DNA from: Candidatus Woesearchaeota archaeon
GTDB lineage: Archaea; Nanobdellota; Nanobdellia; Pacearchaeales; GW2011-AR1
NCBI GenBank assembly: GCA_964497435.1
Contig: CAZCCD010000002.1
Coordinates: 10,050-74,049, forward strand
Reading direction: 5' to 3'
Length of the DNA: 64,000 bases
Both the position numbers and the translations under genes were made by a program. The notes below the pieces were generated by a model. That model did not search any database. It had not been told where the DNA came from and saw nothing but the letters and a program-made list of their open reading frames with translations. Numbering within the stretch: position 1 is the stretch's first letter; each line of letters opens with the position of its first letter. Below are positions 1,022 to 60,600 of this stretch, in pieces.

Positions 1022-1921
1022 GTGATTTATGGTTTTTTTATGGGAGAAAGTAAAAACAACATACATACCTCAAGAGTTCCTTATTTCCATTTTAGACAAG
1101 GAATAAATTTGTGCGGTCCAACCAAATTACAAATAGTTCTTTATGGAAGAGGTGCCCTATATGATCAAGAAGAACTTGCTGCATACATGGGAGTTTATGT
1201 AAGCATAGATCATAAAAATTCATATTCTCCAGTTCTTAGACATAGAGCTCTTCCAAAAGTAGATAAAATTGATCCAAGAACCGGAGAAGTTGTAAAAGAT
1301 TTAGGTGGAAATCCTGTAAAAGTTGATGATGCAAGAGTGGGCTTTAGTATTTGCAGATGGGAAAATAAAAGAGTTCAAGAGAAAATTAGATATTTAGGAT
1401 TAGAGGTATCGGTACATCGTCCAAGCGATTTAGGTTTAACTAGGTTAGTAAAAGATCCTAGTGAATACACGGAAGAGGAATTAAGAATAGCTTCAGAATT
1501 CATTGGTCCGGAAAATCTAGACCGAGGAAATGATGTGGGAATGAACTATAGATGGGACAAATTCAGAGGAACAGAAGATGGACACTATGTTTTAATTTCT
1601 TCTTTCAATGAAAAAAATTATTTAGTAACTGTTACAGATCCTTCGCCAACAAACCCCCCTAATTGGAGTGAGAATCTAAGAAAGTTTTTATTCGGCATGC
1701 AGCCAGTATTTAGAGAAGATGATAATAAGCAAAGAGAAAGAGGATTTTTGGTATTTAAAGGACCTAGAAAATTAAAAACCTATGATTTATCAGAATTATT
1801 AAATACATCTGGAGAAGCTCCAAAATATATTCCAGTAGCCTATGAGATGAAGCCAAAGGACATAGATCCTGAAAAATTTCCTAAACCAATTATGCCTGAA
1901 GAAAGGATGATTAAATCTTAA
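1022..1921 (+). CDS. hypothetical protein, possible papain-fold (C39-like) cysteine peptidase
   Basis: Cys in NLCGPT near N-terminus, His in DGHYVLISS followed ~18 aa later by VTVTDP (C39-like H-hydrophobic ... DP pattern); inference only. Confidence 0.3.
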   Translation: MIYGFFMGESKNNIHTSRVPYFHFRQGINLCGPTKLQIVLYGRGALYDQEELAAYMGVYVSIDHKNSYSPVLRHRALPKVDKIDPRTGEVVKDLGGNPVKVDDARVGFSICRWENKRVQEKIRYLGLEVSVHRPSDLGLTRLVKDPSEYTEEELRIASEFIGPENLDRGNDVGMNYRWDKFRGTEDGHYVLISSFNEKNYLVTVTDPSPTNPPNWSENLRKFLFGMQPVFREDDNKQRERGFLVFKGPRKLKTYDLSELLNTSGEAPKYIPVAYEMKPKDIDPEKFPKPIMPEERMIKS

Positions 1922-3866: not shown

Positions 3867-6467
3867 TTAAAGCGTAGCTTGCTTCTCTCCTAACAAAGCC
3901 TGACCATACTTTCCATCAAAACCAGGCTTGACTCTTATTTTTCCTTCTCTATTTTTCAAAATCAAATCTATTAATTTTGCATCAACGTTATTTTTAATAA
4001 AATCAGTTTCAGGAACATTTAATAAAATATTAAACTCATTACCAAAATTTTGGATTAAAGAATTATATCTTTTCCAAACACTGACAGAATTCATATCGAC
4101 TCCAAAATGCAAGGCAATTAATTCATGCAAAGGAAGTAATTTATAAAAAGGTTTTGCATTAATTGGTTTATGTCCTAAAGGAAATTTAGCAATTTTGTCA
4201 ACCCTATTATCCACACCAATTGTCAACGGTTTTTTGCAAATAGGGCAAAGTCCATTGAGTTTTTTTGTTTCTTCTGGTGAACAAGAAAAATTACAGTTTC
4301 TATGTCCATCATAATGATATTTTCCATATTCAGGAGGAGTTTCTATTGTTGCCTTTAATCCTTGTCCTGTCCTTATTGCCTTCATAATATTTTCATAACT
4401 TAATTCTTTAAGCTCAAATATAGTTGCCTCTCTTCCAATCCTCCACGGCCAAAAAGAATTATGAACAACCAATTGATTAGCAAGATAATTCTTATAACCA
4501 GGAACAGAGATATCATAAAGATAATCAACATCTGACTTAACATTATTAACAGATTTAACTTCTGCAAGGATAAAATCACCCACTCTCTTCACTTTAGACA
4601 TCCTAAAAACCTTAAGATTATTAACATATTTATTTAACTTATTTCTTTTAATATTATGGTTAAATCCAATTTTCTCCCTAAACTTTCTCAAATTCTCCCC
4701 ATAGAGAATCAAATTATGACGATATTTCTGCTTTTTCTTCTCTAATAAATTTAAATAAACTGAACTAAAAATTTCAAACTTTTTTAATAAAGAATCAATT
4801 TGATATAATAACAACTTATTAGCTGAACATCCCTTAACACCATGATCATCTAAAGAACCTTCTGCATCAAAAAATCCTCTTAAAAATCCAGATATTTCAT
4901 TCAAGGGTGCGGAAAAAATCGAACGAGGTATTCTCCTTATTTTGCTTCTAAAAACAGACTCTGGAAAGTTTAACTCAAAGAATTTAGCTATTGCAGAAGG
5001 AATAACTAAACCGTAAGAATGTTGTTGAGAATACTTAAACAGCCTAGAGCTACAAGAAAATAGATTTTTAATTACATCTTGATAATATCTTAAAATATCC
5101 TTGTTCTTATCTGTTAAGATTAAACACTTCCCCCTATTTATCTTAGTCATACAACCATCTCCAATAAAATATCCCAATAGTTCAAAAAGTTTAATAGAAG
5201 AATAATTTGGAAAACTAACCATAGGACCCATATGTTTACAATAATTACCTGTAAATAAGTTATAATCTAAACTAAGAATTTCAACTATTTTTTTTAATAT
5301 TTTATCATTAATTTTTACAACTCCTTTCTCAATTTTCCAATAATGGTTTTTATCTATTCCTAAAAAATCAGCTAATTGTTTCTGTGTTAATTTCCTTTTA
5401 TTTCTTTTAGACCTTAAAAAAGAAAGTCCATCTCTGCTTAATGAAAAATATATATTAATATCTGGTTTCTTCATTAATATACTTCCTTCGTCATTATGGG
5501 AGATATATGCGGATCTAATTAACAGGTCTCCTTTTTTCAAATGAGAGGCAAACTTTTCTATTATAACCCCTTTCTCCCACACATAAAATCTATGTTTATC
5601 AGAGACTTTTATCTCACCTCCAGCATATTTGATTTCTTTCAGCATATTTGGAGATAGTATCTTAGAATACTGAGCTTTAACTCCATTTTTATAAGACATA
5701 TCTTTAAAATCGGCGTAAGCTACTATACCTTCATCTTTAATTTCAGAGATGGGAACAGTGTAACCATTCTCCAAGGTAATAAAAGTATCGGGATGCACAC
5801 AGTGAGCGTCTGAAAAACTAACAACATTAACATTACCTTCTCCAATCTCTCCTAATCTCCAGGCCATAGAAGGATCAGCGCTCATCCCTGATTCAATTGC
5901 ATAAATTTTATCTGTCTGATCTTGAAAACACTCTTTTAATGAATCAAATCCAGAATCACTCCCATATAAACCGAACCAAGGCGTGAATGCATGAGCAGGA
6001 ATAATTTCAATTTTGTCTTCAATTTCTTTTAAGTCTTTAACTAAATCTCTACATGTTATACCAAATATAGGCCTTCCATCATAATCCAATCTTCCTTTGC
6101 TTCCAAGATAGCTTGTTATTTTATCTGCGATTTCTCTGTTTGACGCAAAAACCAAAAGATGGACAGCCCTTCTCTTTCCTCCTTGAGAAAACATCAAGCT
6201 TACTTCTGTCTGCCATAAAAAAGGAAAACCATTGACAGTTCTTAAAATTCCTTTATCATCTTCTGTCAATTTTTCATCAATTTCTTTCCTATGCAATGGA
6301 TGCTGAAAATCCCCAACCCCCATCAAACCAAGACCTTTTACTCTCCCCCATTTCTCAAGATTATCAATGCTTAAATCCTTAGAAGTTGCCCTTGCATATT
6401 TGGAATGAATCTGTAAATCAGCAATAATAAAACTCTCGTTAATCATAATAATCAAGAAATAAAACAC
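3867..6467 (-). CDS. endonuclease Q (EndoQ, PHP-domain nuclease with C-terminal zinc ribbon) interrupted by a LAGLIDADG intein
   Basis: ADLQIHSKYARATS...MGVGD, VHLLVF, IPAHAFTPWFGLY, MSADPSMA, SFSDAH|[intein]|SFWPWRIGRE...CPICKKPL follow the Pyrococcus EndoQ order; host ~418 aa + intein 448 aa. Confidence 0.7.
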   Translation of the reverse strand: MFYFLIIMINESFIIADLQIHSKYARATSKDLSIDNLEKWGRVKGLGLMGVGDFQHPLHRKEIDEKLTEDDKGILRTVNGFPFLWQTEVSLMFSQGGKRRAVHLLVFASNREIADKITSYLGSKGRLDYDGRPIFGITCRDLVKDLKEIEDKIEIIPAHAFTPWFGLYGSDSGFDSLKECFQDQTDKIYAIESGMSADPSMAWRLGEIGEGNVNVVSFSDAHCVHPDTFITLENGYTVPISEIKDEGIVAYADFKDMSYKNGVKAQYSKILSPNMLKEIKYAGGEIKVSDKHRFYVWEKGVIIEKFASHLKKGDLLIRSAYISHNDEGSILMKKPDINIYFSLSRDGLSFLRSKRNKRKLTQKQLADFLGIDKNHYWKIEKGVVKINDKILKKIVEILSLDYNLFTGNYCKHMGPMVSFPNYSSIKLFELLGYFIGDGCMTKINRGKCLILTDKNKDILRYYQDVIKNLFSCSSRLFKYSQQHSYGLVIPSAIAKFFELNFPESVFRSKIRRIPRSIFSAPLNEISGFLRGFFDAEGSLDDHGVKGCSANKLLLYQIDSLLKKFEIFSSVYLNLLEKKKQKYRHNLILYGENLRKFREKIGFNHNIKRNKLNKYVNNLKVFRMSKVKRVGDFILAEVKSVNNVKSDVDYLYDISVPGYKNYLANQLVVHNSFWPWRIGREATIFELKELSYENIMKAIRTGQGLKATIETPPEYGKYHYDGHRNCNFSCSPEETKKLNGLCPICKKPLTIGVDNRVDKIAKFPLGHKPINAKPFYKLLPLHELIALHFGVDMNSVSVWKRYNSLIQNFGNEFNILLNVPETDFIKNNVDAKLIDLILKNREGKIRVKPGFDGKYGQALLGEKQATL
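4458..5801 (-). mobile_element. intein (448 aa) in EndoQ with LAGLIDADG homing endonuclease domain and an internal HTH
   Basis: Begins CVHPDTFITLENG right after the catalytic SDAH, ends VVHN followed by S; two dodecapeptide motifs LLGYFIGDGCMTK and FLRGFFDAEGSL; HTH-like LTQKQLADFLGIDKNHYWKIEKG. Confidence 0.8.
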
Positions 6468-6658
6468 TATATAATTATTTTGATAATATATAAGATGTAA
6501 TTTTTATAAGATAAATCAAATTTTTATTAACTTTAATTAGATATAACTATTAAAATAGGAGTCATATTTATGTTATTCATATAATTAGTTGGAGTTAAAT
6601 TAAATCGTCGTTAAAAATAGTTTTAATATACCTTTAATACAAATCATTTATGAAACTT

Positions 6659-9600
6659 TTATTGTCTCAACCTATATAAAATCACAATGACTACTGCTGC
6701 TATTAAAACAGCAACAATAGCCCAAAGCCACCAATAGCTTTTTCCTTCTTTAGTAACTTCCTCTGTTTCACTTACAGCTGCTCCTGTGATTGGAGATCCT
6801 GCTTCCTCTTCTTGTTCACTAGAAGGTGTGCTAGCAACAGGATCTGAAGTTGCAATAATTTTTATATTTGCTTTATTCGTTCCATTTGTAGCAGCTATAC
6901 TGTTAAGGGTCACAGCAACATCATAAAAGTTATCTCCTGTAACCTCAAATTTCTTTGTTTCTCCAATAGCAAAAGTAGATGTTTGAGGCGTGCTCGAAAC
7001 TTTAACAGTAGCTGCTGCTACTGTTACACCAGTAAGCTCAACAAAATGATACTCACTATTTAAAGTAAATCTAAGTTTATCATTAACATTTAAATCCCTT
7101 GAATATCCTGAATTAAATTGTGACTCACTGACATCGTGTATTGAACCTGCAGCACCTGCACCTCCATCACTTGAGGAACTAGAAGATGATGAGCTGCTTC
7201 CTGAAGAAGGCGCATTTCCAATAACATTTGGTGCAACCCCAGAGAAATGAGGCACTCTTATGTATATCATATTTGAAGTAGTATTAATATAACAATATTC
7301 TGTATTTGTAGTTCCATTGAGATTAGAATCTGTCTTACTACATGTTCTTCCAGCAGTTGTTAAAAAGTTTCTATAACCTGTTGAATTATAAGACCTATTA
7401 TTTGAATTTCCTAAATACTGGTCAATATCTGATGTTATATTAGAAGTTGTATGGCCTAAAGAAGCGTTCCAAACAACATTCCAGTTCTCGTCGTAAAGGA
7501 AAGGTATTGAGACATTCATGCTGCCTGCATCATTGATTACAGAATCAGAATAAGGCATCCCAATTACCACATAGTCATAAACTTCTGAAGGAACAAAACT
7601 TCCAAATTGCCAGACCTGATTTGCACTACTTCCACCACTTGATGCCTGATCATTTATGACACTCTCCATTGGGGGTTGTTTAGCCGAGAACATGTCAAAA
7701 TTATAGAAAGTTATTGTTGTATTTGATGAAATAAGTTTCATCTCCATATTTATCTTTCCGGCAACCAAGGCCTTCAAAGGATTAAATTCTGAATTATTCA
7801 TAGCTGTTAAAACGCAAGAAGAGCCTGGATTTATTCCATCACAAGTTGAAGTTGATCTTATGAACCTCATGTTTATTGGAAAAGCAGAGACATTCATTTC
7901 TTCAAGCTGTCCAGAAGAATTAACTTTTCTAAATCCTAAATCACCATCTCCTTCATTCATCTGAATTATAGTTATGTTATTTACGGCTTTGCTTAGATTA
8001 ATTGTTTTTTCAGTTGGGGGGGCTTGATTAGGGAACAATTTTATCTTTGCTATAACATTTCTAGGTATTGGCCAGACAAAACTTCCTTGAGAAATCTGAT
8101 TATCCTCAATTATATAGTGTAGTTCGCCAAAAGTACTATCATTTCTAAGATACAAATCTACATGGGGGGTATCATCTGTAATTAAACCACCAGTAGAATT
8201 CACAAAGTTAATTGTCACTTTTGTTGCATTTACGTCTCCACCAGTGGCATTATTATAAGCTCCAGCAAGAGGACCTAAAGTAACATTTTGAGTCGTTGTT
8301 GCAGAAAGGCTAACATTTTGTAACATTCCCACGTACTCTGCAACACCATCATGAGTTGAATTTGTTGTGTTTTTTGCATAAAACTCTAAAAGATAATTAG
8401 AATTCAGCAAGCTTATATTATACCACGCAAATTGGCCATTCATCGTACAAGGAGGATTAGATTGATTTAATTGTGAAGTCGATGATAAATTAAGCTCTCC
8501 TGTATCTTTCATTGGAGGAACAAAACCAGTCCAAGGCATCATTCTTGGGATTATTGATGTAACATTTCTTATTGGTGTTAAATTTCCAGAAACTCCGATA
8601 CATCCTGATAGATAAACTCTTGTAACAGTCAAATTAAGTTGAACATTTAATACCTGACCAGCCACTGTAGGAGTAACTGTTGAATTTGATCTTGGAGGTG
8701 CAGGACAGTGCGTCGCATTCATAAACTGACCATTGCATGTTGACCCATTTCCAAATGAGAATCCGCTAATTCCTGTGAATGGCTCTCTTAAAACCATAAT
8801 CGTATACTGTCTATTCAATGGAACATAAACTTGCTTAACACTTACATTTGTCCTAAAATTACTTTCAATTGGAAATCCTGCTTTTTGCTCCATTACTTCA
8901 TAGCCAAATAACTGCCACCCGCCTGCAGTCGTATTTATTGCACTAATATTAATAGTTGCAGCATCTTCAACATAGAAAGTTGTTCCATTAAGTGTTGGGG
9001 GTTTCATAAATTCATTCCCTTGAAAGTCATCAAAGTCAAAACTAGGCAATGGGTAATACATCATTGCAGGGAAAGGAGGTAATATAGTCCCAACTTTAAT
9101 CACAGAACCACTTGCATTTTCATGTGTTGAATTAGAACCTTGCCTATAATACATCTTTAACAAGAACAAGTCTGCAGAGCTATTAATATTTGACAAAGTA
9201 AAAGAACCATCATTACCACTTAAAGCACTAGCTACAAAAATCTCTTTTGGCGGGCCATTTGGTTGCTCAGCAAATTGATAAATAGAAACATTGGCTCCTG
9301 TTACATTATGACCTGTTTCATTTTTTATATAACCTGAAAAAGCAAAATTAGTTGTAGTTGATGATGTTGAGGCATTCCATCCTCCATTATCCCTTGTCAC
9401 ATTAAGGCTTATATTTACATTTTGGCCTTCTACTGAAGTAACATTAAATGCAAAATTCTTTGTTGTTCCCCATTTGAATCCTCCTGCTGTTAGATTCCAC
9501 CTTAAACTACTAGAAGTATTAATAAAAGATGACCATGTCGCATTTGTGGAATTTGAATTAGAAACAAATGTAACGCCCATAGGCAATGAAAACTCAACTA

Positions 9601-19968: not shown

Positions 19969-20224
19969 AAATAAAATAAACTCTTAATGTTTATAAACAT
20001 TTCTTTAGAAAAATAGCAGCTCGCAATCTCGCTGATTGTATTATAAATAAGACTGATTAATAAAGAGAGAGTAAGTTAGCAAATCTTAGATATGACTATC
20101 TACAAATTTATTCATTAAAGTTAAATTAAGCATAATAATCTTGGGCATCTAAATCTAAAAAATTAATGCTCAGAAAAGATCGTAGTTATTGTTAAGCTAT
20201 AAACTTGATTAAATACATCTACAT

Positions 20225-20665
20225 CTAACTCTGAGTGTATAAATCAGGATTAAGAATCTTGCAAGTCTCTCCATTAACCTTATCGTCTTCTTTTAAGTTC
20301 TCATTATCACAAAGCTGTTCAGCTAAATTCCTAACAGTGTTAGCAGTATCGCTGCAAGAATCTTCAGGGAGCAGATGTGTGAATGTAGCATATTGTTCAA
20401 GATAATCACAATTTACAAACTGCTTCTTCCCAGCTATCTTGACTTCCTTAAACTCATTGCAATAACTAGTTTTAAGATTATTACTTCCTGAAACATCACA
20501 TGCCTTGGCAGCTACTTCTAAATCTCCTGGAAGAATTCCAATTTTTCCAAATATAAAATCCCATCCTTTAATAAATCCGACAGCAACAACAACTAATACA
20601 ATAATTCCCAGTATAAGCAATATTAAAGTTGAAATAGGCAGTCCTTGAGCCTTTTTATTAAACAT
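20225..20665 (-). CDS. type IV pilin-like protein with archaeal class III signal peptide
   Basis: From the internal Met: MFNKKAQG|LPISTLILLILGIIVLVVVAVGF (basic N-region, Gly before a hydrophobic stretch); Cys-rich globular part. The upstream 29 codons of the track ORF are probably not translated. Confidence 0.6.
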   Translation of the reverse strand: MFNKKAQGLPISTLILLILGIIVLVVVAVGFIKGWDFIFGKIGILPGDLEVAAKACDVSGSNNLKTSYCNEFKEVKIAGKKQFVNCDYLEQYATFTHLLPEDSCSDTANTVRNLAEQLCDNENLKEDDKVNGETCKILNPDLYTQS

Positions 20666-20734
20666 CTTAAGCCTCTCTTTCATATATAGGAATAACAAAC
20701 AAGTGTTTATAAATATTTTTAATCTGTTTGACTC

Positions 20735-20880
20735 ACTCGTAAACTCGCTCATCCATTAGTATTACTTTGAATCAGATTTCATTGTTTACTTTTATTGGAT
20801 ATAATCAATCATCAAATTGTTTTTTATCAACAATCATATAAATTTATGAGCGAAGCGAACTTATTCATTGATTGACGTTT
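20735..20880 (+). repeat. inverted repeat pair (ctcgctcat ... atgagcgaagcg) about 100 bp apart at the 5' end of pilin gene 20225..20665
   Basis: gactcactcgtaaactcgctcatcc ... tatgagcgaagcgaac; GC-rich islands in an AT-rich spacer. Confidence 0.35.
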
Positions 20881-36481: not shown

Positions 36482-36714
36482 ATCCTAATCCATATTTTAT
36501 ATTGCTTTTGACAATAGTGTTAAATTCAATTTATATTCTAATATAAAACTTTGATTAATCTTATATATTAACTACTCAAATTGTATCGAGAATATTTATT
36601 ATAAATAATTAATGAATAAATCCATTATTAACGATTTGTCTTATTACTATCAATATTTACCTTAGAGCGTAAAGCAAATTAAATGTTAAGATAAAGGATT
36701 TACTTTATATAATG

Positions 36715-39655: not shown

Positions 39656-41509
39656 CTAATTGGTTGACCTCGAAGCACTATTGTCTACCTCATTGCCTCC
39701 AGTATTTCCTTGATCATCACTAGCTATACATCCTAAATAACCATTATTAGAAGCTGTCTGTCCTGCATCATCTCTGCTGAAAACATCTACAGGATGTATA
39801 ATTGCACACCAAATTTTTTGTAATAAACCAGCTTGTTTTTCTAGCTCTTGTTTAAGCAAGGTGCATTTTCCTTCTATACATACATTACTCTTACATTGAT
39901 AATCCTCGACACAACTCTGTCCTTCGTTCTTAGCACTCTCATATTTTAAAGTAAAAGGACTGCAATATTTTAACACCCCTCCAATTTCTGCCCTTGTTTT
40001 TGGAGAAATTCTAGGCCCTCCTTCAACAACAGGCTCGCAACTAATACCTCCTTCTTCTTCAGGAACTATACAGGCTCCTTTTTCACATCCATCATCACAT
40101 CTAATTATCTCTTCTTTTAACTCGCCAGACTCACAGTATAATTCCTTTAAATATGATCCTTTTTCTAAATCAGGACCTGTAAGAGAATCTCTACAAGAAT
40201 CTTGATAAATATCCTGTCCATTGACTAATGTAAATGCCCATTCATAATAGTTCTTTCCAAAATCACCGTCAGCGCAAGTTATCTCATCTTTTATGTCAAG
40301 AGGAACAGGAGCAGGACCAGTAGGAGAAATATAAGAAATTAAATAAACAATATCAGAGCTCTTAACTTCCCAGTCACCATTTACATCACCTATCCATAAA
40401 GGACTAGGAGCTGCTCCTCCTTTAAAAACATAATTTACAAGGTAATTAACATCTAGCTGATTAATACTCCCGTCTTTAGTTAAATCTCCTCTTTCCTTGA
40501 GAACAGGAGCTGGAGCATTTTTATTTAGATAATTTTCAAGATAAGTTATATCAGATGTTTTTACCTGACTATCACCATTTACATCACCTATCCATAAAGG
40601 ACTAGGAGCTACTCCTCCTTGAAGGACATAGCTTATTAATAGATTTAAGTCAGAAAAATCAATTTTATTATTTTTATCTAAATCTCCTACAACATAAGAA
40701 ACAGGGGCTGAGGCTCCGGTTGCACCATTTAAGTAATTTTGAAGGTAGAGTATATCAGCATTGCTTACATCACCATTTCCATTTACATCTCCTATCCATT
40801 CTGGAGATGGGGGAGTACCTGCCCTTAAAATGTAATCTGTTAAAAGATCAAGGTCTGCATTATTTATAATCTTGTTTTTGTCTAAATCTCCTATAAGATA
40901 TGATACAGGATCTGGAGCATCAACATTGCGACTTAAATAATTTTCTAAATAAGTTATATCTCCAACACTAACATCATTGTTTCCATTAACATCTCCTAAT
41001 TCAATAGGATCAGGAGCAGGGCCTGCTCTTAAAATGTAATCTGTTAACAAGTCAAGATCATCACTATCTATTACTCCATCTTTGTTTATATCGCCTGTTT
41101 GAAGAGGAACTGGTTTAGGACCCCTCGGAGAAATGTAAGAAATCAAATAAGTTATGTCTGCATTATTTACTATTTTGTCACCATTTACATCTCCTAATTC
41201 AATAGGATCAGGAGCTACTCCTCCTTTAAGAACATATTCTATTAAAAAATAAACATCTTCTATATCAATCTTCCCATCAATATTAACATCTCCTCTCTTT
41301 AATTCTATTTCAACATTTGTTTTAGAATCAATCCTCGTGAGATCTTGGCTTTCATTGATAGCAAAACCAACAATCCCTATTCCTGCAATTAGTATAGCAA
41401 GAGAAATAACAATTGAAATAACAATTACATACCTCTTTTTTCTGGCTCTATTTTGACCAGAGGTAGAGGCTTTGCCTCTTTTTTCCATGATATGTATAAC
41501 AAAAAACAC
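39656..41509 (-). CDS. membrane-anchored surface protein built from ~10 tandem dockerin-type (EF-hand-like Ca-binding) repeats plus C-terminal Cys-rich domain
   Basis: N-terminal TM; repeated ~33-aa units GDVN.DG.V...DI.YL..Y...GG.AP.P (e.g. GDVNIDGKIDIEDVYFLIEYVLKGGVAPDPIEL). Confidence 0.55.
   Translation of the reverse strand: MFFVIHIMEKRGKASTSGQNRARKKRYVIVISIVISLAILIAGIGIVGFAINESQDLTRIDSKTNVEIELKRGDVNIDGKIDIEDVYFLIEYVLKGGVAPDPIELGDVNGDKIVNNADITYLISYISPRGPKPVPLQTGDINKDGVIDSDDLDLLTDYILRAGPAPDPIELGDVNGNNDVSVGDITYLENYLSRNVDAPDPVSYLIGDLDKNKIINNADLDLLTDYILRAGTPPSPEWIGDVNGNGDVSNADILYLQNYLNGATGASAPVSYVVGDLDKNNKIDFSDLNLLISYVLQGGVAPSPLWIGDVNGDSQVKTSDITYLENYLNKNAPAPVLKERGDLTKDGSINQLDVNYLVNYVFKGGAAPSPLWIGDVNGDWEVKSSDIVYLISYISPTGPAPVPLDIKDEITCADGDFGKNYYEWAFTLVNGQDIYQDSCRDSLTGPDLEKGSYLKELYCESGELKEEIIRCDDGCEKGACIVPEEEGGISCEPVVEGGPRISPKTRAEIGGVLKYCSPFTLKYESAKNEGQSCVEDYQCKSNVCIEGKCTLLKQELEKQAGLLQKIWCAIIHPVDVFSRDDAGQTASNNGYLGCIASDDQGNTGGNEVDNSASRSTN
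40298..41296 (-). repeat. coding tandem array of ~10 dockerin-like 33-aa repeats inside 39656..41509
   Basis: Periodic GDVNG/GDLDK ... YL.NY ... AP.P units read from the translation; coordinates approximate. Confidence 0.6.
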
Positions 41510-42035: not shown

Positions 42036-44654
42036 TTAATTACTATAACTGTAACGTGCATCACAAGGAGCAGAGGGTTCGCAGAGATTATATGAATCTG
42101 AATCTTCAGGGTAACAACCAACACTCCCTGTACATGATACAACCATTGCTTCTGGCTCACCTGAAACTGAATTTGAAGTAGCCCTGCAGCCAGCATATTT
42201 AGTGCCTCCACAACCTGAAGAACATCTACCATAACATGTAACTAAAACTTTTGTTTTTGATTCTGTTGTCTTATCCCCTTTTATTATAACTTGGTTGCTG
42301 GACTCGGATTCTGCTGTCTTAGCATTTAAGACTAAAAATGAGCTATCACTAATTCTAATAGCTTGAGGGTTAGTTTTACTCTTCAATCCAAAAATTCTTC
42401 TAAATAAAGATGGTTTTGATTCTTTTTGAGTCTGTGAAAAATAACTTTCAACACCTTTCAAAGCTTCTTCTTTGTTTTCAGGGATAAGCTGAGGCGTACC
42501 TCCACTCCCACTAGAAACACAATTACATTGCGGAACAGGACCTGCCTTGAATATATAGTTAGTTAAATAAATAATATCCCCAGAATTTATTCCTGCGGAA
42601 TTATCAACATCTCCAATACATGATGGATTTGGAGCAGGCCCTCCTTTAAATACATAATTGATTAAATAAACAATATCTCCGGCAGTAACTCTGCCGTCAT
42701 TATTAACATTTCCGCAAATGTAATGAGGAATGTCTTCGGGCACACAGGCTCCATCAACACAGCCATATACACATTCGTCTGAAACAACTTGTGGTTCTGT
42801 TCCACTGCAGTAATATTCATTTAAGACATTAGAGTGTGAAATTAGTTGAATCTGTGCATTTACTCCTCCGCCAACAGGTCCTTCATTAGCATTCAACAAA
42901 TTAACAATAACTCCAAGAATCTCTTTAGAGGTTCCTTCTATTATTTCTTTAGTCTCAGATGCTCCTAGACTATTAGTTACCTTAATCGTGGCAGAAGTAT
43001 CTGTAGCACTTATTAATTCAAAAGTGTAATACTCTCCTTCATAATCTGCACCAACACTGGCTCCTATCGATAGTGTAAAAGAACTAAGACTTTCTCCACA
43101 CAGATCTTGTTTTGAATAAGATTTTCCATAACTATCATACCCATAAACACTTCCAACAGTAAACCACATTATTCCTCCATCTGTATCTGTGCAGGAAGCC
43201 GTCGTTATGCCTGAGCACTCACTAAATTTAATATAAGCTCCATTTGTATTGTCATAAGATTCAAAAATAAAATGTAATTTATCAAAAACAGGGTTTGTCC
43301 ATGTCTGTCCTAATTTAATCTCGTCATTATCTGAATCAGAAGCGAAGAAAGAGACAATAAATCCTGTAGTAGAAGCCCAACTCGCACCACTTCTTGTTAC
43401 TAAAGTTCCATCTACAGGTATTCCATCAGATCCACGAATTACTTCAGAACCATGAGTTAGTTTTAATACGTCAGAACCAACAAATAACTGTGCTCTAATA
43501 ACTCCAAAAGAGTCTTCATCAACAACAACAAGAGAAACAACTACGCCTTGTATTTCTTTAAAAGAGTATTCACTTATTTCTTTTATTTCAGATGCTCCAT
43601 TTGAATCAGTGACTTTAATAGTTGCAGAAGTGTCTGATCCTGAAATCAATTCAATTGTATAAGTCACTCCATTAATTAATGTTTCTACTTTTGAAGGTTC
43701 AGATCCTCCAAGAGATACATCTACTTTTCCAACAGGCCCTGTTCCCATTCCCAACAAATATAAATCACTAGCCGTAGTTCCAGCTCCAACAATATATTCT
43801 TTATCAGATAAAGATATTGGTTCTCCAATAGAATCAAGATGAGTAAAATCTACAGCTCTATTAAAGATTATATTATACCTATAAAGAGGTCTAGAACTAA
43901 TTGTACTCATCTGAACATGAACATAACCTGTGTCATTTTCAAGAGTGTTGTTTCCAATAGTTAAAGTCTGCACAAAATTTGCACCAACGTTTCCTTCGAA
44001 AATTCCATCAGCTAAAATAGTTGGAATATCTGATTTAGTCAGAACGGTCTTTACTTTGTTAATAGGATCTCCAATAAACAATTTAGAACTAGGAGTATGT
44101 AAATAAGCACTCTCGCATGTTGGCTGAACACATCCTTCATCAATGCCTAAAGCACAATTGTCATCAATTCCATTGCAAACCTCTGCCATGCCAGGATTTA
44201 TATTTGGATTATTATCGTTGCAGTCTTGAGGGTCGCAACTATCTCCAACCCCATACCCATCATTATCATTGTCTACACATGTTGAAGGTATACAAATCCC
44301 ATTACTGCATCCACCAGGACATGGTGTACAAATTCCTTCAGTCCAGGTTTGTGTGCAGTTTCCAGTTATATTATTGCATTGAAAATAAATAGTTGAGGTG
44401 CAGGCGTCGTTTCCAGAACAATACTGTGTTGTTATAGGAGGACAATCAGAATTTGTCGTGCATGACGCAGTTCCACTAGTCACAGACGAAACATATCCTT
44501 GAACACCTTGAGCATAGCTTGATTCTTCAATTTCAAGCACAGGAGATTTTCTTACAGCTTCGCCTGTTGGAGATTTTCCTATGTTTGCAATAAGAATAAC
44601 TATAACAAGAACTAAAGCTACCAAACCCAAAAACATCACCCTCTTTTGATCCAT
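42036..44654 (-). CDS. large secreted Cys-rich surface protein with internal duplicated domain and one dockerin-type repeat pair
   Basis: Signal/TM at N-terminus; duplicated ~45-aa segment (TYTIELISGSDTSATIKVTDSNGASEIKEI vs YYTFELISATDTSATIKVTNSLGASETKEI); GNVNNDGRVTAGDIVYLINYVFKGGPAPNP/GDVDNSAGINSGDIIYLTNYIFKAGPVP. Confidence 0.5.
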   Translation of the reverse strand: MDQKRVMFLGLVALVLVIVILIANIGKSPTGEAVRKSPVLEIEESSYAQGVQGYVSSVTSGTASCTTNSDCPPITTQYCSGNDACTSTIYFQCNNITGNCTQTWTEGICTPCPGGCSNGICIPSTCVDNDNDGYGVGDSCDPQDCNDNNPNINPGMAEVCNGIDDNCALGIDEGCVQPTCESAYLHTPSSKLFIGDPINKVKTVLTKSDIPTILADGIFEGNVGANFVQTLTIGNNTLENDTGYVHVQMSTISSRPLYRYNIIFNRAVDFTHLDSIGEPISLSDKEYIVGAGTTASDLYLLGMGTGPVGKVDVSLGGSEPSKVETLINGVTYTIELISGSDTSATIKVTDSNGASEIKEISEYSFKEIQGVVVSLVVVDEDSFGVIRAQLFVGSDVLKLTHGSEVIRGSDGIPVDGTLVTRSGASWASTTGFIVSFFASDSDNDEIKLGQTWTNPVFDKLHFIFESYDNTNGAYIKFSECSGITTASCTDTDGGIMWFTVGSVYGYDSYGKSYSKQDLCGESLSSFTLSIGASVGADYEGEYYTFELISATDTSATIKVTNSLGASETKEIIEGTSKEILGVIVNLLNANEGPVGGGVNAQIQLISHSNVLNEYYCSGTEPQVVSDECVYGCVDGACVPEDIPHYICGNVNNDGRVTAGDIVYLINYVFKGGPAPNPSCIGDVDNSAGINSGDIIYLTNYIFKAGPVPQCNCVSSGSGGTPQLIPENKEEALKGVESYFSQTQKESKPSLFRRIFGLKSKTNPQAIRISDSSFLVLNAKTAESESSNQVIIKGDKTTESKTKVLVTCYGRCSSGCGGTKYAGCRATSNSVSGEPEAMVVSCTGSVGCYPEDSDSYNLCEPSAPCDARYSYSN

Positions 44655-44740
44655 TAATTTTCTTAAGAATATTAAGTTTATAAATGTTTTTTTTGAAAGT
44701 GGTGATTTTGTTAATTTTAAAGAAAAAAAATAAGAATAGA

Positions 44741-44800
44741 ACCGCTCGCTTCGCCCGCTCTAAAATTGCTAGTTCGCAAAACTCACTAGTTATTTAATAA
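44741..44800 (+). repeat. intergenic copy of a short GC-rich palindromic repeat family
   Basis: accgctcgcttcgcccgctctaaaattgctagttcgcaaaactcactagtta; related words at 49101..49160 and partially at ~20010..20045, 20735..20765, 20845..20880. Confidence 0.45.
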
Positions 44801-48403: not shown

Positions 48404-49438
48404 ATGAGTAGCACAAACCAATCACCCCAATATTTAAAGGCTCAGGCAAGATTTTTACAGGCTCAAACAGATACAGAAAAACTTCTTGCCTTAGAAGAAA
48501 TGATTAGAGAATGTCCTAAACATAAATCTAGTGAATCAATGCTTGCCAATCTAAAAACCAGAAGAAAAAAACTCCTGGAAAAAATTGAAAAAAGAAGTAG
48601 AAAAAGCAAATCTTCAAAGCATGGAATAAAAAAAGAGTCTATGCAGACAGTAATAATTGGAAAAACAAATTCTGGAAAATCAACTTTAATGTCTTTATTG
48701 ACAAACACAAAGCCCGAAATTTCTCCATATGGCTTTACAACAAAAAATCCTGTTGTGGGAATGATAGATTATTCTGGAACACAAATACAATTAATTGAAA
48801 ACCCCGCAATAGAATCAGAATATTATGACAAAGGATTAACACATTCCACAGATACGTTATTGATAGTTGTTAATAAATTAGAAGAGGTTAACGAAATTCT
48901 TGAGCTTTTAAGAAATATGGATAAAAAAAAGATAATTATATTCAACATCAAAGAAGATTTAGACGAAAGGAAGCTTGATGCAACACTAAAGAGTAAGAAG
49001 CTAAATTATTTTATTATTAATCTAAAAGAAAAAATTGATATAAAAAATGAAGATAATATAATTGAAGAGGTTAATATCAATTATTATAGGGCGGGTGGTG
49101 AGCAATTTCGCGAGACAAAATTGCAAAACTCACAACTAGCGGAGTTGCGAATTAGGGGGGTTGGGGGCGGGGTAGAACTTCTTAAAGAAAAAATATTTCA
49201 AAGCTTTAGCAAAATTCGTGTCTTCACAAAAGAGCCGGGAAAGCCAAAATCAGAGAGGCCCGTTATTCTTGACCCTGAAAGCAAGATAAAAGATTTAGCC
49301 GAAAAATTACATAAGAAATTCATAGAGCAATTTAAATTTTCAAGGGTTTGGGGTCCTAGTGCAAAATTTGGAGGAATGGTGTGCGGGCTAAATCATGTAC
49401 TAAAAGATAATGATATAGTAGAGTTACATACTTCTTAA
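48404..49438 (+). CDS. DRG/Obg-class GTPase with C-terminal TGS domain, atypical G3/G4 motifs and an inserted GC-rich segment
   Basis: DRG-like N-terminal helix, G1 GKTNSGKST, G2 FTT, G3 reads LIENPAI (DxxG -> ExxA), G4 reads NKLE, TGS domain (VWGPSAKFGGMVCGLNHVL.DNDIVEL). Confidence 0.6.
   Translation: MSSTNQSPQYLKAQARFLQAQTDTEKLLALEEMIRECPKHKSSESMLANLKTRRKKLLEKIEKRSRKSKSSKHGIKKESMQTVIIGKTNSGKSTLMSLLTNTKPEISPYGFTTKNPVVGMIDYSGTQIQLIENPAIESEYYDKGLTHSTDTLLIVVNKLEEVNEILELLRNMDKKKIIIFNIKEDLDERKLDATLKSKKLNYFIINLKEKIDIKNEDNIIEEVNINYYRAGGEQFRETKLQNSQLAELRIRGVGGGVELLKEKIFQSFSKIRVFTKEPGKPKSERPVILDPESKIKDLAEKLHKKFIEQFKFSRVWGPSAKFGGMVCGLNHVLKDNDIVELHTS
49101..49180 (+). repeat. GC-rich nested palindromic element in-frame inside the GTPase gene, followed by a G-tract run
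   Basis: gcaattt cgcgagac aaaattgc ... caact agcgg agttg ...; outer ttcgc...gcgaa; then ggggggttgggggcgggg; shares aaaattgc / aaaactcac / ctag / ttcgcaa words with 44741..44800. Confidence 0.5.
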
Positions 49439-50518
49439 GTTATTTTTAATGTGGTTAATTATTGGTTCTTTTGATGATACCTTAAGTAATTTTTTTAGGG
49501 TTTCATCATTATCCAGAGAGGTTGCAATATATTTCAGGAGTTGATTTTTACTAAAGCCCTTATAATTTTTTGAGTTGCTTATTTTTCCTTCTTCAATGAA
49601 TTTTATTTCTCTAAAAAATCTTTTTATATCTTCTTTACGATTCAGGTTGATGTTATTTTCGTCGTTAATTGGCCTATATCCAAGAGATTCTAAAATAAAA
49701 AGGGTGTCTTTCATAATTCCTGGATTAAAAACAGCCAAAGAAATACGCGGTTCTATTTTCCATCTTTCTTTACTTTTCCTATAAGACAGAGAATGGAATA
49801 CGCTTCCATCACCAGCGTAAAACCCCCTTAAAAAGCTATTTTTAACTTCTTTTTCAGCATTCAAAAGATCGTCAGATAATTTCTTTTTATTGAATAGGAA
49901 CCTATTTACTAAAGAAACAAAATGAATGGAATAGACACTTATTTCATACACACCGCTTTCTTTAATTCTTTTTAAAAATTTTAGTCCCCAAGAATTCATT
50001 AAATTTTCATAATAAGAGAGCAAAGAAGGATCTTTATTATAAAAATCAACATTATACTTCCCGATATATCCATCCGATAATATTAGTCCAAGAAATTCAT
50101 AAAAATATCGGTCTAACCCAATGTCTATTTCTTTAATTCTTCTGTGTTTGATCTTATTAGTTTTCCTCAAAAGATTTATTCTGGAAAAAATAGTTGAATC
50201 TGTTAAATCCAAATTTAATTTTCTTCTCAGTTCATCCTTTATCTGAGTATTATTAAATTTATTTTTACTTAATTTTAAGATTATCTCTCTCGACTTAATT
50301 ATTTTTAAATCAAAATCAATCCGGGATCTTCCTCTTCCGTTTAAAATATACCTTCCTAAAGAAACTCTTTTAAGATAACCTTTCTTCCAAAACTTCTTGA
50401 AATAATTATTTCTAACTTGATTATAGGTTAAATTAATTAATTTAGAAATTTCCTTGGTGTTGTGCTCTTCAGACCAAAGTTCTAAAATGGTTCTAGATTT
50501 GTCCAGTAAAACTCTCAT
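49424..50518 (-). CDS. free-standing LAGLIDADG homing endonuclease (double-motif, N-terminal wHTH)
   Basis: FLGLILSDGYIG and FLRGFYAGDGSV dodecapeptides ~100 aa apart; no Hint/splicing blocks, so not an intein; 3' end overlaps the GTPase gene by 15 nt, convergent. Confidence 0.7.
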   Translation of the reverse strand: MRVLLDKSRTILELWSEEHNTKEISKLINLTYNQVRNNYFKKFWKKGYLKRVSLGRYILNGRGRSRIDFDLKIIKSREIILKLSKNKFNNTQIKDELRRKLNLDLTDSTIFSRINLLRKTNKIKHRRIKEIDIGLDRYFYEFLGLILSDGYIGKYNVDFYNKDPSLLSYYENLMNSWGLKFLKRIKESGVYEISVYSIHFVSLVNRFLFNKKKLSDDLLNAEKEVKNSFLRGFYAGDGSVFHSLSYRKSKERWKIEPRISLAVFNPGIMKDTLFILESLGYRPINDENNINLNRKEDIKRFFREIKFIEEGKISNSKNYKGFSKNQLLKYIATSLDNDETLKKLLKVSSKEPIINHIKNNLRSM

Positions 50519-57648: not shown

Positions 57649-60600
57649 CTAAAACCACTTCTTCAAAGCTTCTTGCTTTTCTTCTTCCTTGCCAAATATG
57701 CTATCAATATATCTTTTGACTAACTCCAAATTCTGATTTATATATGGAGAGAGATTATATTTCTTAGCCAATTCTAATGCTGGCTCCAGATATTTTTTTA
57801 TACCTCCTTCATGAACTGTGAAGATTATCTTTCCGTTACATTCAGGACAAACGCCTTTCAAAGGAGGCCTTCTCATAATATTATTGCAGGCAACACATCT
57901 GAAGTCTTGTATTGAAAAATTTCTGAGATTTCCTTTCATATCCCTAATAAAGTGTCTTTCAATTATTAGTCTAGCAGTATCTGAAGTATCGGCTGCCCTT
58001 AATTTTTCAACAAGCCTCATTTGATGTTTCACTTTATCTTGCATTGTTGCCAGGGTTTTATAGCTCGAACATAAAACACCTTCATTAAAATTAGAAGTAT
58101 CGTGAGTAAAATTAATATTCAAAAAAGGATCTTTTCCTTCTTCTAAAATATCTCTAACCATGTAGACTTTAACTTTTGAAGAATGCTCTCCTCTTTCAGC
58201 TGCCTCGTAAAGTTCTAAAGGATACTCTTTAACAACCTCGAAATCTAGAATTTGTTCATCAACCTCTCCTGCATCTATCTTAGCATTTAAAACAAGAGGA
58301 GCATCTTGGGTTCCACCCCTATGGCTTGGTAAAAATTTTCTTGAAAAATTCAAGAGGACGTCAGACAAAAGCATAATAGCTGCCTCATCACCATCGCATC
58401 TCGTATTGATTATCTGTTCCCCCCACAAAACATTCCTATCCTCTTTTTCTTTCCATTCTATTTCTAAACAATAAGAGTTTTTTTCTTCTTTAATTACTTC
58501 AACTTTTTTAACATAATCTTCTACATAATCACTTTTAGCAACTAAAGGAATTTGTTTACCATTATACTTTAAAAATCTTTTTTCTGCAGGATGTAAAAAT
58601 TTAATTTTTTCGGACTTTTGAGAATTAATAACATTCAAAATTTTACCCAATTTAAAAGAATCGTAAACTCCTAAAACCAAATGATTTAAAATATGTTTTT
58701 TGGGAATTTTACCTAATTTTTCATACTTATCCAAAACCCTCTTCCCAGGAAGTCTTAAATCCGTTCTGAAATATCTTCCAAAAACTCTAAACTTTGATAA
58801 AAGTAAAGTTACGTCATCGAGTAATTCTCTTGAAACAGAGTAAAAGACTATATTTTTTCCTTTGATAATACTTCCATCACCATCAAAATAAGCAGAGATA
58901 TACTCTTTAACTAAATCCTTATTCAAACCAAAAAAAAATCTAGGGACTCTTTTATCATATGCTCCTTCGCCACACCCGATAAACTTAATAAAATAATAAA
59001 CCAATTTACTACAAACCATTATTTTTGTATTATCCTCTCCTAAACTTGCTTTCATTCCAAAAACTTCTCCTATTAATTTGATAAGATGGTCTTGCATATC
59101 TTTATTACAAATTCTAAAACTAACTTGTGAAACCCATTTGTTGGTTCTTGAATAGCCTTCTGCAGCATAATAACCTAAAAATCTAATCAGATTTTCATTA
59201 ATAGGAATAATTGCGGGGATTTTATGATCAGAAGAGACATATTTTAATTTTATATCGTGATAACTAATTTCCTTATTAAAAGTTTTTTCCTTATAGAAAT
59301 CAGACAAATTTATTTTTTTCCCATCAATAAAAACAAAAATTTTTTTCTTTTCTTTTTCTGAAAGTTTTTCTTTAAAAAGTTCAATTAAATTAACTTCTTT
59401 AATATCCAATTCAAAATTAAAATTTTCCAATACAGGAAGTTTATCATCAATTTTTAATTCCTTAGCTTCTTTAAATTTGAATTGCTCATCTTCTATATAC
59501 ATAAATTTATGGGTGGGCGTCATAATATACTCCCTATTTGTTGCTGTTGTAACCTTTATCCACTCCCGGGTTATTGGACCTTTTATAAAATATTTAATTT
59601 TCTTTTTCTTTAGTTCATGAGTAACTGGATCGATTCCTAATGCGTAAATATTTTTATTGTTTTCAACTGAAATGGTTCCAAAAGAATCAATCTTTTCTGT
59701 TTTTGCCCCTTTTTTTATTAAATTTTCAACATAATTTCCTATATCATCATAAAATATTTCATCATTATTCTCATTATAAAAAAATATTTTGGTTGTCGGA
59801 TAAACACAGTCTCGTCTAATTGCAGCATGCATGAAAGGACTTGCTAAAAGCCCAAGAGTGTTTGAAAATCCAATAAACCTACAAATTACTCCGGCACAAT
59901 TATGAGGAGCCATGCAAACACCTAATTGTCCTATAAGATCTTCTCTTTTCCTCACATTATGGATTGGCTTTAAACCATAAATTCTTTCTAACATTTCATC
60001 GATAAACAAAGATATTCTCATGAAAACATTATCCGCCCCTTCTTCAGGTGAAGAGGCGTAACCAGGAAGCAAGATATCATGGGGTTTTAATTCTAATATC
60101 TGATCATCTTTTTCCAAAGGCATTCCATAAATGTCCTCATTATAACCTAACTCTTTTAATTTTTGAACACCCACAAAAATTTCTTTTGGTTTAAACGCTG
60201 TTAAAGGTATTTCAGTAACATCATATCTTATAGTTCCATCTTTATTAACCTGTAAATCATATTTTGCCCTTAAAATTCCTTTAGAAAGATTTTCAATAGT
60301 CTTATCTTCTGAAGACAATCCTCTAACACCCTTCACTAAAAGAGGTATCTCTTCTTTATTCAAACCAAGTTTTTCAATACTTTTGTTAAAATAATAACCA
60401 ATATCTATAATTCTATTATAATAAGGCACTCCTTTACTATTTTCTAATTCTCTCTTAAAACTTAATTGTTTTTTTTCAAAAAAATAAAATTGTTTTTTTG
60501 TCTTCTTCTCACATTTTTCACATAAAGGATAGATTGTCTCTATTTTACATTCTTCACAATAAAAAGTTGGAAAAGAGCCCCTTACCTTTCCAACTTCACA

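Follow-up and report, generated by a model that had tools for sequence, protein, structure and literature searches.

How does a GC-rich palindromic block come to lie in frame within a GTPase gene of an AT-rich archaeal genome? The question is raised by a stretch of 64,000 nucleotides (positions 10,050 to 74,049 of contig CAZCCD010000002.1, assigned to a Candidatus Woesearchaeota archaeon), which is designated the window in the following and whose gene content, including eIF2-alpha, RadA, PolD, and a FlaI-like ATPase, is archaeal. A sequence-only reading of the locus had proposed that the gene for a DRG/Rbg-like GTPase carries an insertion reminiscent of Rickettsia palindromic elements (RPEs). 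According to our analysis, the palindrome is likely to be a copy of a short, non-autonomous dispersed repeat of Pacearchaeota-type DPANN archaea, which inserted in a tolerant loop of the GTPase and is read through. The comparison with RPEs holds because a core of ~70 nt recurs elsewhere in Pacearchaeota-type genomes, not for the reasons first given. In the mechanism that we propose, the element would be composed of this conserved core of ~70 nt and a fast-evolving AT-rich arm, and a copy would have inserted in the surface loop between the last β-strand and the last helix of the G domain, i.e., at the G5 position. Since the inserted length would be a multiple of three and the G-rich strand open in the frame used, the insertion would be read through, and the GTPase gene would survive because the G5 loop tolerates insertions.

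The insertion in the GTPase gene

The host gene and the parts of the insertion are the following:
48404..49438, plus strand: open reading frame (ORF) of a DRG/Rbg-like GTPase of 344 aa with N-terminal helix-turn-helix (HTH), G domain, and TGS domain, which hosts the insertion
49031..49162, plus strand: insertion of 44 codons (residues 210-253), placed by alignments with the family, boundaries uncertain by ~3-10 nt
49031..49088, plus strand: AT-rich left arm with an inverted repeat of its own, AAAAATTGATATAAA / TTAATATCAATTATT
49089..49160, strand not assigned: GC-rich conserved core GGGCGGGTGGTGAGCAATTTCGCGAGACAAAATTGCAAAACTCACAACTAGCGGAGTTGCGAATTAGGGGGG, which contains the 22-mer 49112-49133 found in contigs L009-L013 and is matched by the covariance model
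49163..49172, plus strand: G-run GGGGGCGGGG, codons GGG GGC GGG for Gly254-256, a near-repeat of the left end of the core, GGGCGGG

A database search yielded 1420 homologues of the GTPase. The best 120 of them originate from metagenomes and metagenome-assembled genomes (MAGs) with the source labels Nanoarchaeota or Pacearchaeota and are 299-313 aa long, with a single exception of 328 aa. In alignments with 21 and then with 119 homologues, the window protein has 44 residues extra. The claim of an in-frame GC-rich palindromic insertion is thereby borne out by residues 210-253, which are extra in comparison with the 120 homologues, and the proposed alignment of DRG orthologues identified this 44-aa segment, missing from the homologues of 299-313 aa, as lineage-specific. 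It is placed between the last β-strand of the G domain (…YFIINLKE) and its last helix (GGGVELLKEKIF), which corresponds to the G5 loop, and directly precedes the helix GVELLKEKIF. The palindromes that had been described near 49101-49180 are all present in the sequence, namely GCAATTT/AAATTGC (49102-08 / 49118-24), CAACT/AGTTG, and TTCGC/GCGAA, as is the run G6TTG5CG4. That the segment stands out in a low-GC genome was likewise confirmed, as the 60-nt stretch 49123-49182 has a GC content of 55% and is among the top five of the window, whose overall value is 31%. Glycine is encoded in the window by GGA (55%), GGT (23%), GGG (13%), and GGC (9%); the GGG GGC GGG triplet is thus atypical for the host.

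Conceptual translation of the insertion in frame 2 of the G-rich strand gives GGEQFRETKLQNSQLAELRIRG, and YYRAGGEQFRETK is a stretch of the predicted insert-containing GTPase peptide. A model calculated with AlphaFold2 (AF2) on the family alignment has a mean predicted local distance difference test (pLDDT) value of 80.6. Residues 210-254, which are located between strand 202-205 and helix 256-266, have values below 50, whereas the flanking elements of the G domain are predicted with confidence; residues 1-3 and the linker 66-73 are also not confident. The insertion appears to be read through into the protein, to which it would add ~44 poorly ordered residues, and the insert, with pLDDT <50 between confident elements of the model, may lie in a surface region compatible with the fold and function of the host protein.

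In the GTPase itself, Pfam recognises MMR_HSR1 (residues 82-181, E 9e-16) and TGS (residues 271-343, E 2e-12). The closest solved structures are those of yeast Rbg2 (7nrc, E 9e-25) and Rbg1 (4a9a, E 4e-21); the alignment to them covers the N-terminal HTH and the motifs G1-G3 and then resumes at GVELLKEKIF and extends to the end of the TGS domain. The protein shares with DRG/Rbg proteins the architecture of HTH, G domain, and TGS domain and has its best similarity to Rbg1 and Rbg2, but lacks the canonical DxxG and NKxD motifs and the S5D2L domain (PF16897). For the latter no Pfam match was obtained in the window GTPase or in most family members; some homologues do have a precomputed PF16897 match. 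The family members of ~300 aa are smaller than Rbg1/2 (366-410 aa). At G3 of the window GTPase, ENPA stands opposite DLPG of Rbg1/2, and NKLE occupies G4. These Asp-to-Glu and Gly-to-Ala substitutions had been pointed out for this gene; they are present, but the family alignment deprives them of any gene-specific significance, as E132 and P134 are invariant, A135 is near-invariant (ExPA), and the G4 position NKxD is variable in all members. ExPA and the lost NKxD are a trait of the whole ~300-aa DPANN DRG-like family and, being common to all of it, are uninformative about the window gene or the insertion. G1, the G2 threonine, and the TGS domain are strongly conserved throughout the family, whose members, as judged from these motifs, may be nucleotide-binding proteins with altered specificity or lost hydrolysis.

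Copies of the core in other genomes

The plain 22-mer GAGACAAAATTGCAAAACTCAC (49112-49133) was used as a probe against public genome and metagenome contig collections and recovered three Joint Genome Institute (JGI) metagenome contigs (L009, L010, L011) and two contigs of the Candidatus Pacearchaeota MAG JACQLK01 (L012, L013). A strict double-hairpin pattern gave no match in these collections, because the second stem varies among the copies (CAACT vs CAACG/CAACA). When aligned, the copies form a discrete block GGGnGGnnGGnGAGCAATTTCGCGAGACAAAATTGCAAAACTCACAACnAGCGnnGTTGCGAnTTAGGGG with unrelated flanks, and the pairwise identity of the core is 87-93% over 70 nt and ~81-83% outside the 22-mer. 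Three copies are intergenic: that of L012 lies between two convergent genes and that of L013 between two co-directional genes, both in JACQLK01, and that of L011, which is truncated after …CTCACAA, lies just downstream of a gene. The copies of L009 and L010, identical in sequence in two JGI samples, are located inside an ORF for MnmA of 457 aa. In comparison with MnmA structures in the PDB, residues 4-133 and 199-335 of this ORF align, and ~58 extra residues are found between GHYAR and KDQSYFL. The core of the MnmA copy is translated as GWEASNFARQNCKTHNERGCELG, corresponding to frame 0 of the G-strand, and that of the window GTPase in frame 2; frames 0 and 2 are the only stop-free frames of the G-strand across the core, and the C-strand has one. 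In both genic insertions the length is a multiple of three, and an AT-rich stretch accompanies the core, in both cases on the same side.

Relatives with the same gene order allow a comparison of presence and absence at identical sites. Between the window, L014, and L018, collinearity extends over the genes for a Hef-like helicase, ERCC4, LigT, arginase, M16 peptidase, the GTPase, the LAGLIDADG protein, Tyr/Trp-tRNA synthetase, TctA, and PolD. A degenerate copy of the element (2870-2959, nhmmer E 1e-12) is located in L014 between ERCC4 and LigT and has kept the G-rich ends and GCGAG words and lost the hairpins, while the orthologous ERCC4-LigT spacer of the window (36482-36714) is purely AT-rich and contains no element. 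Conversely, the core is not present in the GTPases of the syntenic relatives L014, L018, L004, and L006. Syntenic relatives thus differ in the presence of the element at the same sites. Taken together, the same short sequence is found at unrelated loci, with five further contexts, two of them on different contigs of the one genome JACQLK01, and it occurs both in frame in genes (GTPase, MnmA) and between genes (L011, L012, L013, L014). The proposal of an RPE-like palindromic element inserted in frame is supported by this recurrence of the ~70-nt core in unrelated contexts, both intergenic and in frame in MnmA.

A further copy may exist in the source genome itself. Two Logan contigs from different runs (SRR12113383, SRR12113420) match the window with 100% identity and share 49107 as their first position, which is 30 nt before 49137, a loop position that is variable among the copies (T/G/A). 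These 30 nt equal k-1 for a Logan k-mer length that we take to be k = 31. The shared start would therefore mark a branch in the de Bruijn graph that was caused by another copy in the sample, and we infer more than one copy in the source genome. The same contigs bear on the idea that the segment is an assembly chimera, as two independent Logan assemblies match it exactly from 49107 on and two JGI samples gave the same sequence for the MnmA copy. Together with the idea that the G-runs form a regulatory G-quadruplex acting in translation or replication, for which the close succession of runs of six, five, and four G and GGG.GGG 60 nt upstream could be quoted, it is hardly credible: the check for G-quadruplexes, a suggestion of the earlier reading, came out negative, since the canonical motif (four G3+ tracts separated by loops of 1-7 nt) has no match in the whole window on either strand, and the additional G-runs are missing from the other copies.

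The two genic copies also allow us to judge whether the insert is removed or skipped, be it as a bulge-helix-bulge (BHB) intron, as another type of intron, or by translational bypass as for the yeast mitochondrial 'byps'. GC-rich hairpin inserts in AT-rich coding DNA recall mitochondrial GC clusters and byps, and excision would restore the loop length typical of the family. Nevertheless, we regard removal as very unlikely, because both genic copies are multiples of three and free of stops in the frame used, though other frames of the core contain stops, which would be unnecessary if they were removed. A scan for BHB motifs (helix/3-nt bulge/4-bp helix/3-nt bulge) gave weak AT-rich candidates, mostly out of frame, and nothing convincing as an archaeal BHB intron spanning the insert.

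The loop which received the insertion is variable in other family members as well. In P0052, P0034, P0100, P0006, and P0008, this GTPase loop contains shorter G-rich insertions. In a neighbour-joining tree, the insert-bearing GTPases are scattered, each beside insert-free sisters, which points to independent insertion events; a single ancestral insertion common to all of them was therefore rejected. The loops of the mini-insertions use GGG-rich codons, which are atypical for the host. Those of P0052 and P0006 contain GTGGGAGG, which also forms the left end of the L009 element and has four independent occurrences in 190 kb, and that of P0034 ends in AGGGGGGTT, as does the right end of the window core. 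Homology of the P0052 loop (from L001) to the window insertion was considered and dismissed, as the similarity was weak (matched by 4/500 shuffles) and not significant in comparison with L009. The mini-insertions may be scars left by the element, or else just Gly/Trp-rich loops that arose by convergence.

Variation of this kind lends some plausibility to an ordinary lineage-specific expansion of a Gly-rich loop by slippage or low-complexity growth, with palindromes arising by chance: shorter G-rich insertions occur in at least four scattered homologues (P0052, P0034, P0100, P0006), the AT-rich half of the insert resembles typical N/I/K/E-rich filler, and the fold of the palindromic segment is no outlier window-wide. 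A local expansion cannot explain a 70-nt core that is near-identical at unrelated loci of other genomes. As an origin of the core it is refuted by these copies, and for the insert as a whole it is most improbable; the AT-rich arm may have arisen in this way.

Two side observations concern the contigs with copies. In the MnmA of L009 (9412-10785, minus strand), a second expansion, N/K-rich and ~35 aa long, is located between residues 335 and 421 in comparison with PDB MnmA. L013 contains at ~6853-6880 (minus strand), ~650 nt from its complete copy, a fragment TTGTTTTCTGGGGCGGGTGGGCAGG which corresponds to the left junction and the first ~12 nt of the core. Of this fragment, 17 nt are identical to the L011 junction, and a small membrane-protein ORF (6399..6812) separates it from the complete copy.

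Hairpins, ends, and proposed spread of the element

On the C-rich strand of the window copy, two adjacent hairpins are predicted:
49127..49153, minus strand: hairpin A on the C-rich strand, 10-bp stem including G-U pairs, 7-nt loop
49102..49124, minus strand: hairpin B on the C-rich strand, 10-bp stem including G-U pairs, 3-nt loop

The folding of the four intact copies (window, L009, L012, L013) was compared with that of shuffled sequences. For the window copy, the G-rich plus strand has a z-score of -0.4 and the C-rich minus strand, with the two adjacent hairpins, one of -4.6; in L009, L012, and L013, the C-rich strand reaches -5.2, -5.3, and -3.6 and the G-rich strand -2.0, -2.4, and -1.3. 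The same two 10-bp hairpins form the minimum-energy fold of the C-strand in all four copies, and DNA parameters left the strand asymmetry unchanged. In the alignment of the four copies, 20 of 20 pairs are kept everywhere, three of them varying on one side and each time via a G-U wobble; among the G-U pairs, several do not vary at all. On the G-rich strand, the hairpins would contain C·A mismatches, so that whatever reads the structure must use the C-rich strand, i.e., the antisense strand of the two host ORFs. A stable predicted hairpin, as is characteristic of RPEs, is thus found on the C-strand of all four intact copies (z -3.6 to -5.3). In the window as a whole, the minus-strand fold ranks ~36th of 6390 windows after correction for composition, and structure alone would not have singled out the element.

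The strand-specific hairpins, with their invariant G-U pairs and substitutions restricted to wobbles, can also be interpreted in terms of a functional small RNA gene or a structured regulatory RNA that is read from the C-rich strand and selected by the host, the copies within ORFs being antisense-embedded genes. The much stronger conservation of the core than of arms and flanks would fit, as would the three intergenic copies in which the C-rich form is co-oriented with and downstream of the upstream gene. Yet the conservation is in part apparent, having been inflated by ascertainment with the 22-mer, and no promoter or terminator could be defined as conserved. Searches of Rfam (gathering and E-value thresholds) and with ARAGORN identified no family, tRNA, or rRNA in the 64-kb window or matching the element. 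The truncated copy of L011, the degenerate one of L014, and the variable presence between syntenic relatives are further arguments against an RNA gene, and a host RNA gene is not expected within two different housekeeping ORFs. We therefore consider such a gene unlikely and return to a dispersed repeat.

As to the extent of this repeat, the similarity between the two copies of JACQLK01 (L012, L013) continues on the 5' side of the G-strand for another ~85-150 nt of AT-rich sequence (z=9), whereas the AT-rich arms from different genomes have no significant similarity. Accordingly, the mobile unit probably measures 130-220 nt and comprises a fast-evolving arm and a constrained core. After the core, its G-rich left end recurs in nearly the same form, GGGCGGG…GGGCGGGG in the window and GGGTGGT…GGGTGGT in L014. 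A candidate for a target-site duplication was seen in the window:
49021..49035, plus strand: left copy TCTAAAAGAAAAAAT of a 15-nt direct repeat, which encodes LKEKI; the partner copy is TCTTAAAGAAAAAAT (49180-49194), at a distance of 159 nt

TCTAAAAGAAAAAAT and TCTTAAAGAAAAAAT agree in 14 of 15 positions, and the pattern has no other match in the window. An origin as target-site duplication is nevertheless unsupported, as the left copy consists largely of ancestral N-L-K-E codons, found in relatives at the same position, and no equivalent direct repeat flanks the L009 insertion.

Several results weigh against a mobile repeat. No consistent target-site duplication was found in the window and L009, terminal inverted repeats are not evident in either (L013 has a weak 19-nt pair with 74% complementarity), and a Pfam scan of 52 window ORFs gave no transposase. 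The alignment of the four copies contains no double-sided compensatory base changes. A second copy in the 64-kb window was found neither by BLASTN (word size 7) nor by Smith-Waterman alignment, a covariance model (E<=10), or nhmmer. The six copies known were recovered by the exact 22-mer of the core, so that core conservation is inflated by ascertainment. The two cores of JACQLK01 are only 87% identical to each other and thereby no closer than copies between genomes, which fits a sequence conserved for its function as well as recent mobility. At the protein level, the insert peptide was absent from a word-index protein search, which also missed the full protein and is uninformative, and among 1.84 billion cluster representatives it matched one unrelated eukaryotic repeat protein; the latter search has little sensitivity, since proteins with the insert fall into the same clusters as their insert-free relatives.

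The sequence-only reading had also listed related sequence words within the window, at 44741-44800 and 20010-20880. These turned out to be no better than chance: when the 89-nt core was aligned locally with the remaining window, the top score was 26, which was equalled or exceeded by 13 of 60 shuffles; 44735-65 scores 4.4 bits with the covariance model; 20018-40 has an nhmmer E-value of 4.6; and an 11-mer that is common to the core and 44771 is expected by chance. The sole match of covariance model R1 in the window is the element itself (49084-49165, minus strand, 102 bits). The sites may be described in their own right. At 44735-44800, a GC-rich intergenic patch GAACCGCTCGCTTCGCCCGCTC…TTCGCAAAACTCACTAG between two minus-strand genes resembles only the C-rich ends of the element. 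The intergenic mini-hairpin AGCTCGCAATCTCGCTGATTGTA at 20018-20040 agrees with hairpin A of the C-strand in 18 of 23 positions, including a compensatory change of CAAC/GTTG to CAAT/ATTG, and is not significant by its nhmmer E-value of 4.6. At 1652-1664 (minus strand), within an ORF (1022..1921) without Pfam match, the 13-mer AATTAGGGGGGTT matches the right end of the window core in every position. Scans of viral contigs and BLAST against phages and plasmids did not find the element.

Known families of small repeats provide the frame for comparison. RPEs are hairpin-forming repeats of 105-146 bp that are located between genes and in frame in at least 19 conserved genes (PMC2229807; PMC10969869; first described by Ogata et al. 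2000). With these, the element shares that it is a short dispersed repeat with predicted hairpins, that it occurs between and in frame within housekeeping genes, and that the insert probably lies at a site tolerated by the fold. It differs in its hosts, which are DPANN archaea rather than Rickettsia, the likeness being one of function, as sequence homology is not expected across domains; in its conserved part of only ~70 nt, which is GC-rich in a genome of 31% GC; in the two adjacent hairpins on one strand only, where RPEs form one long stem from terminal inverted repeats; and in the number of genic copies, two being known here as compared to at least 19. For an archaeal precedent, palindromic repeats of Methanocaldococcus jannaschii reportedly also lie within coding regions, as Suyama et al. 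are said to have described in 2005; phylum and sequence differ from those of the element.

GC clusters and byps of yeast mitochondria are GC-rich palindromic mini-elements which invade AT-rich genomes including protein genes, and the element resembles them as a GC-rich palindromic mini-element located in frame in protein genes of an AT-rich genome. Byps, which the ribosome skips, do not have to be open; the two genic copies of the element, in contrast, are open in their reading frames, and the host is an archaeon. The REP/BIME and PATE families are mobilised by HUH transposases (IS200/IS605-type, RAYT) and form strand-specific imperfect hairpins without classical terminal inverted repeats or target-site duplications. 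The element is similar in all of these structural features but differs in that its two hairpins are mutually dissimilar and that no conserved target tetra- or pentanucleotide could be established; nor was TnpA or RAYT detected among the 52 scanned window ORFs. Of the properties of the IS200/IS605 type, strand-asymmetric hairpins are present, and no transposase was recognised among these ORFs. [quoted passage not shown] The element is likewise a small non-autonomous repeat but lacks the terminal inverted repeats that this census required. With no Rfam match and no description in the literature searched, the element family is previously undescribed.

How the repeat spreads is the weakest step of our proposal. 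It would involve a strand-specific single-stranded intermediate, either DNA or RNA, in which the hairpins of the C-strand are recognised, and we suggest this with low confidence. A bolder version, which we regard as doubtful, holds that the double hairpin is an active strand-specific module (an end pair of a single-stranded DNA transposon or a mobile antisense RNA) that is selected across Pacearchaeota and preferentially enters G-rich (Gly-codon) sites by microhomology with its G-rich termini, and that later deletion of the hairpins leaves G-rich footprints, among them the Gly/Trp-rich mini-insertions in the GTPase loop. If this were true, the element would repeatedly give rise to new surface loops in essential proteins of DPANN archaea.

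DPANN genomes are tiny and streamlined, presumably under strong pressure for reduction. A selfish or semi-selfish repeat that is tolerated in essential translation-related genes would imply that even such reduced genomes are invaded by mini-elements, and that these can remodel surface loops of core proteins. The asymmetric double-hairpin core is compact enough for biochemistry, and the covariance model offers a handle for copy counts and for the mobilising enzyme. Since the element breaks short-read assemblies and lengthens ORFs, it is also relevant to the annotation of MAGs.

The LAGLIDADG neighbour and other features of the window

The GTPase gene is followed by a convergent gene:
49424..50518, minus strand: free-standing gene for a protein of 364 aa with HTH and double LAGLIDADG (LAGLIDADG_3, E 2e-9, two stretches)

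The two ORFs overlap by 15 nt (49424-49438), as the sequence-only reading had stated; a relevance of this overlap to the insertion could not be upheld. The LAGLIDADG gene is located between the tRNA synthetase gene and the GTPase gene, with an overlap of exactly 15 nt, in L004, L005, L006, L014, and L018, and as gene pair and overlap are conserved where the GTPase has no insertion, the adjacency is coincidental to the insertion. A link between the two was rejected, the same gene pair being present in relatives with insertion-free GTPases. Among 14 LAGLIDADG homologues, both catalytic aspartates (D149, D237) are invariant. The identity to relatives is 69-78% for the LAGLIDADG protein as compared to 59-66% for the neighbouring GTPase, and the distant relatives L001, L015, and L016 are devoid of the gene. 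Of the hallmarks of homing endonucleases, the two motifs and the conserved acidic residues are present, but the distribution is not sporadic or mobile. The gene behaves as a stably inherited gene of its clade, and judging by conservation and synteny the protein looks like a domesticated, vertically inherited one rather than a homing endonuclease.

Further LAGLIDADG domains are found in inteins. An ORF of 866 aa (3867-6467, minus strand) contains an intein (Intein_splicing and LAGLIDADG_3) including HTH_3, and its extein has no Pfam match at E<=1e-5. At the position of the large subunit of PolD, the window has an ORF of 1630 aa (57649-62541, minus strand); among its orthologues, an intein with LAGLIDADG_3 is present in those of L006, L018, and L019 (1659 aa) and absent from that of L014 (1151 aa). 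Finally, two large proteins with dockerin type I repeats are encoded at 39656-41509 and 42036-44654 (minus strand), one with an additional EF-hand and the other with a MopE-like metal-binding motif. By their domains, they are candidates for cell-surface proteins, which would be unusual for a DPANN archaeon.

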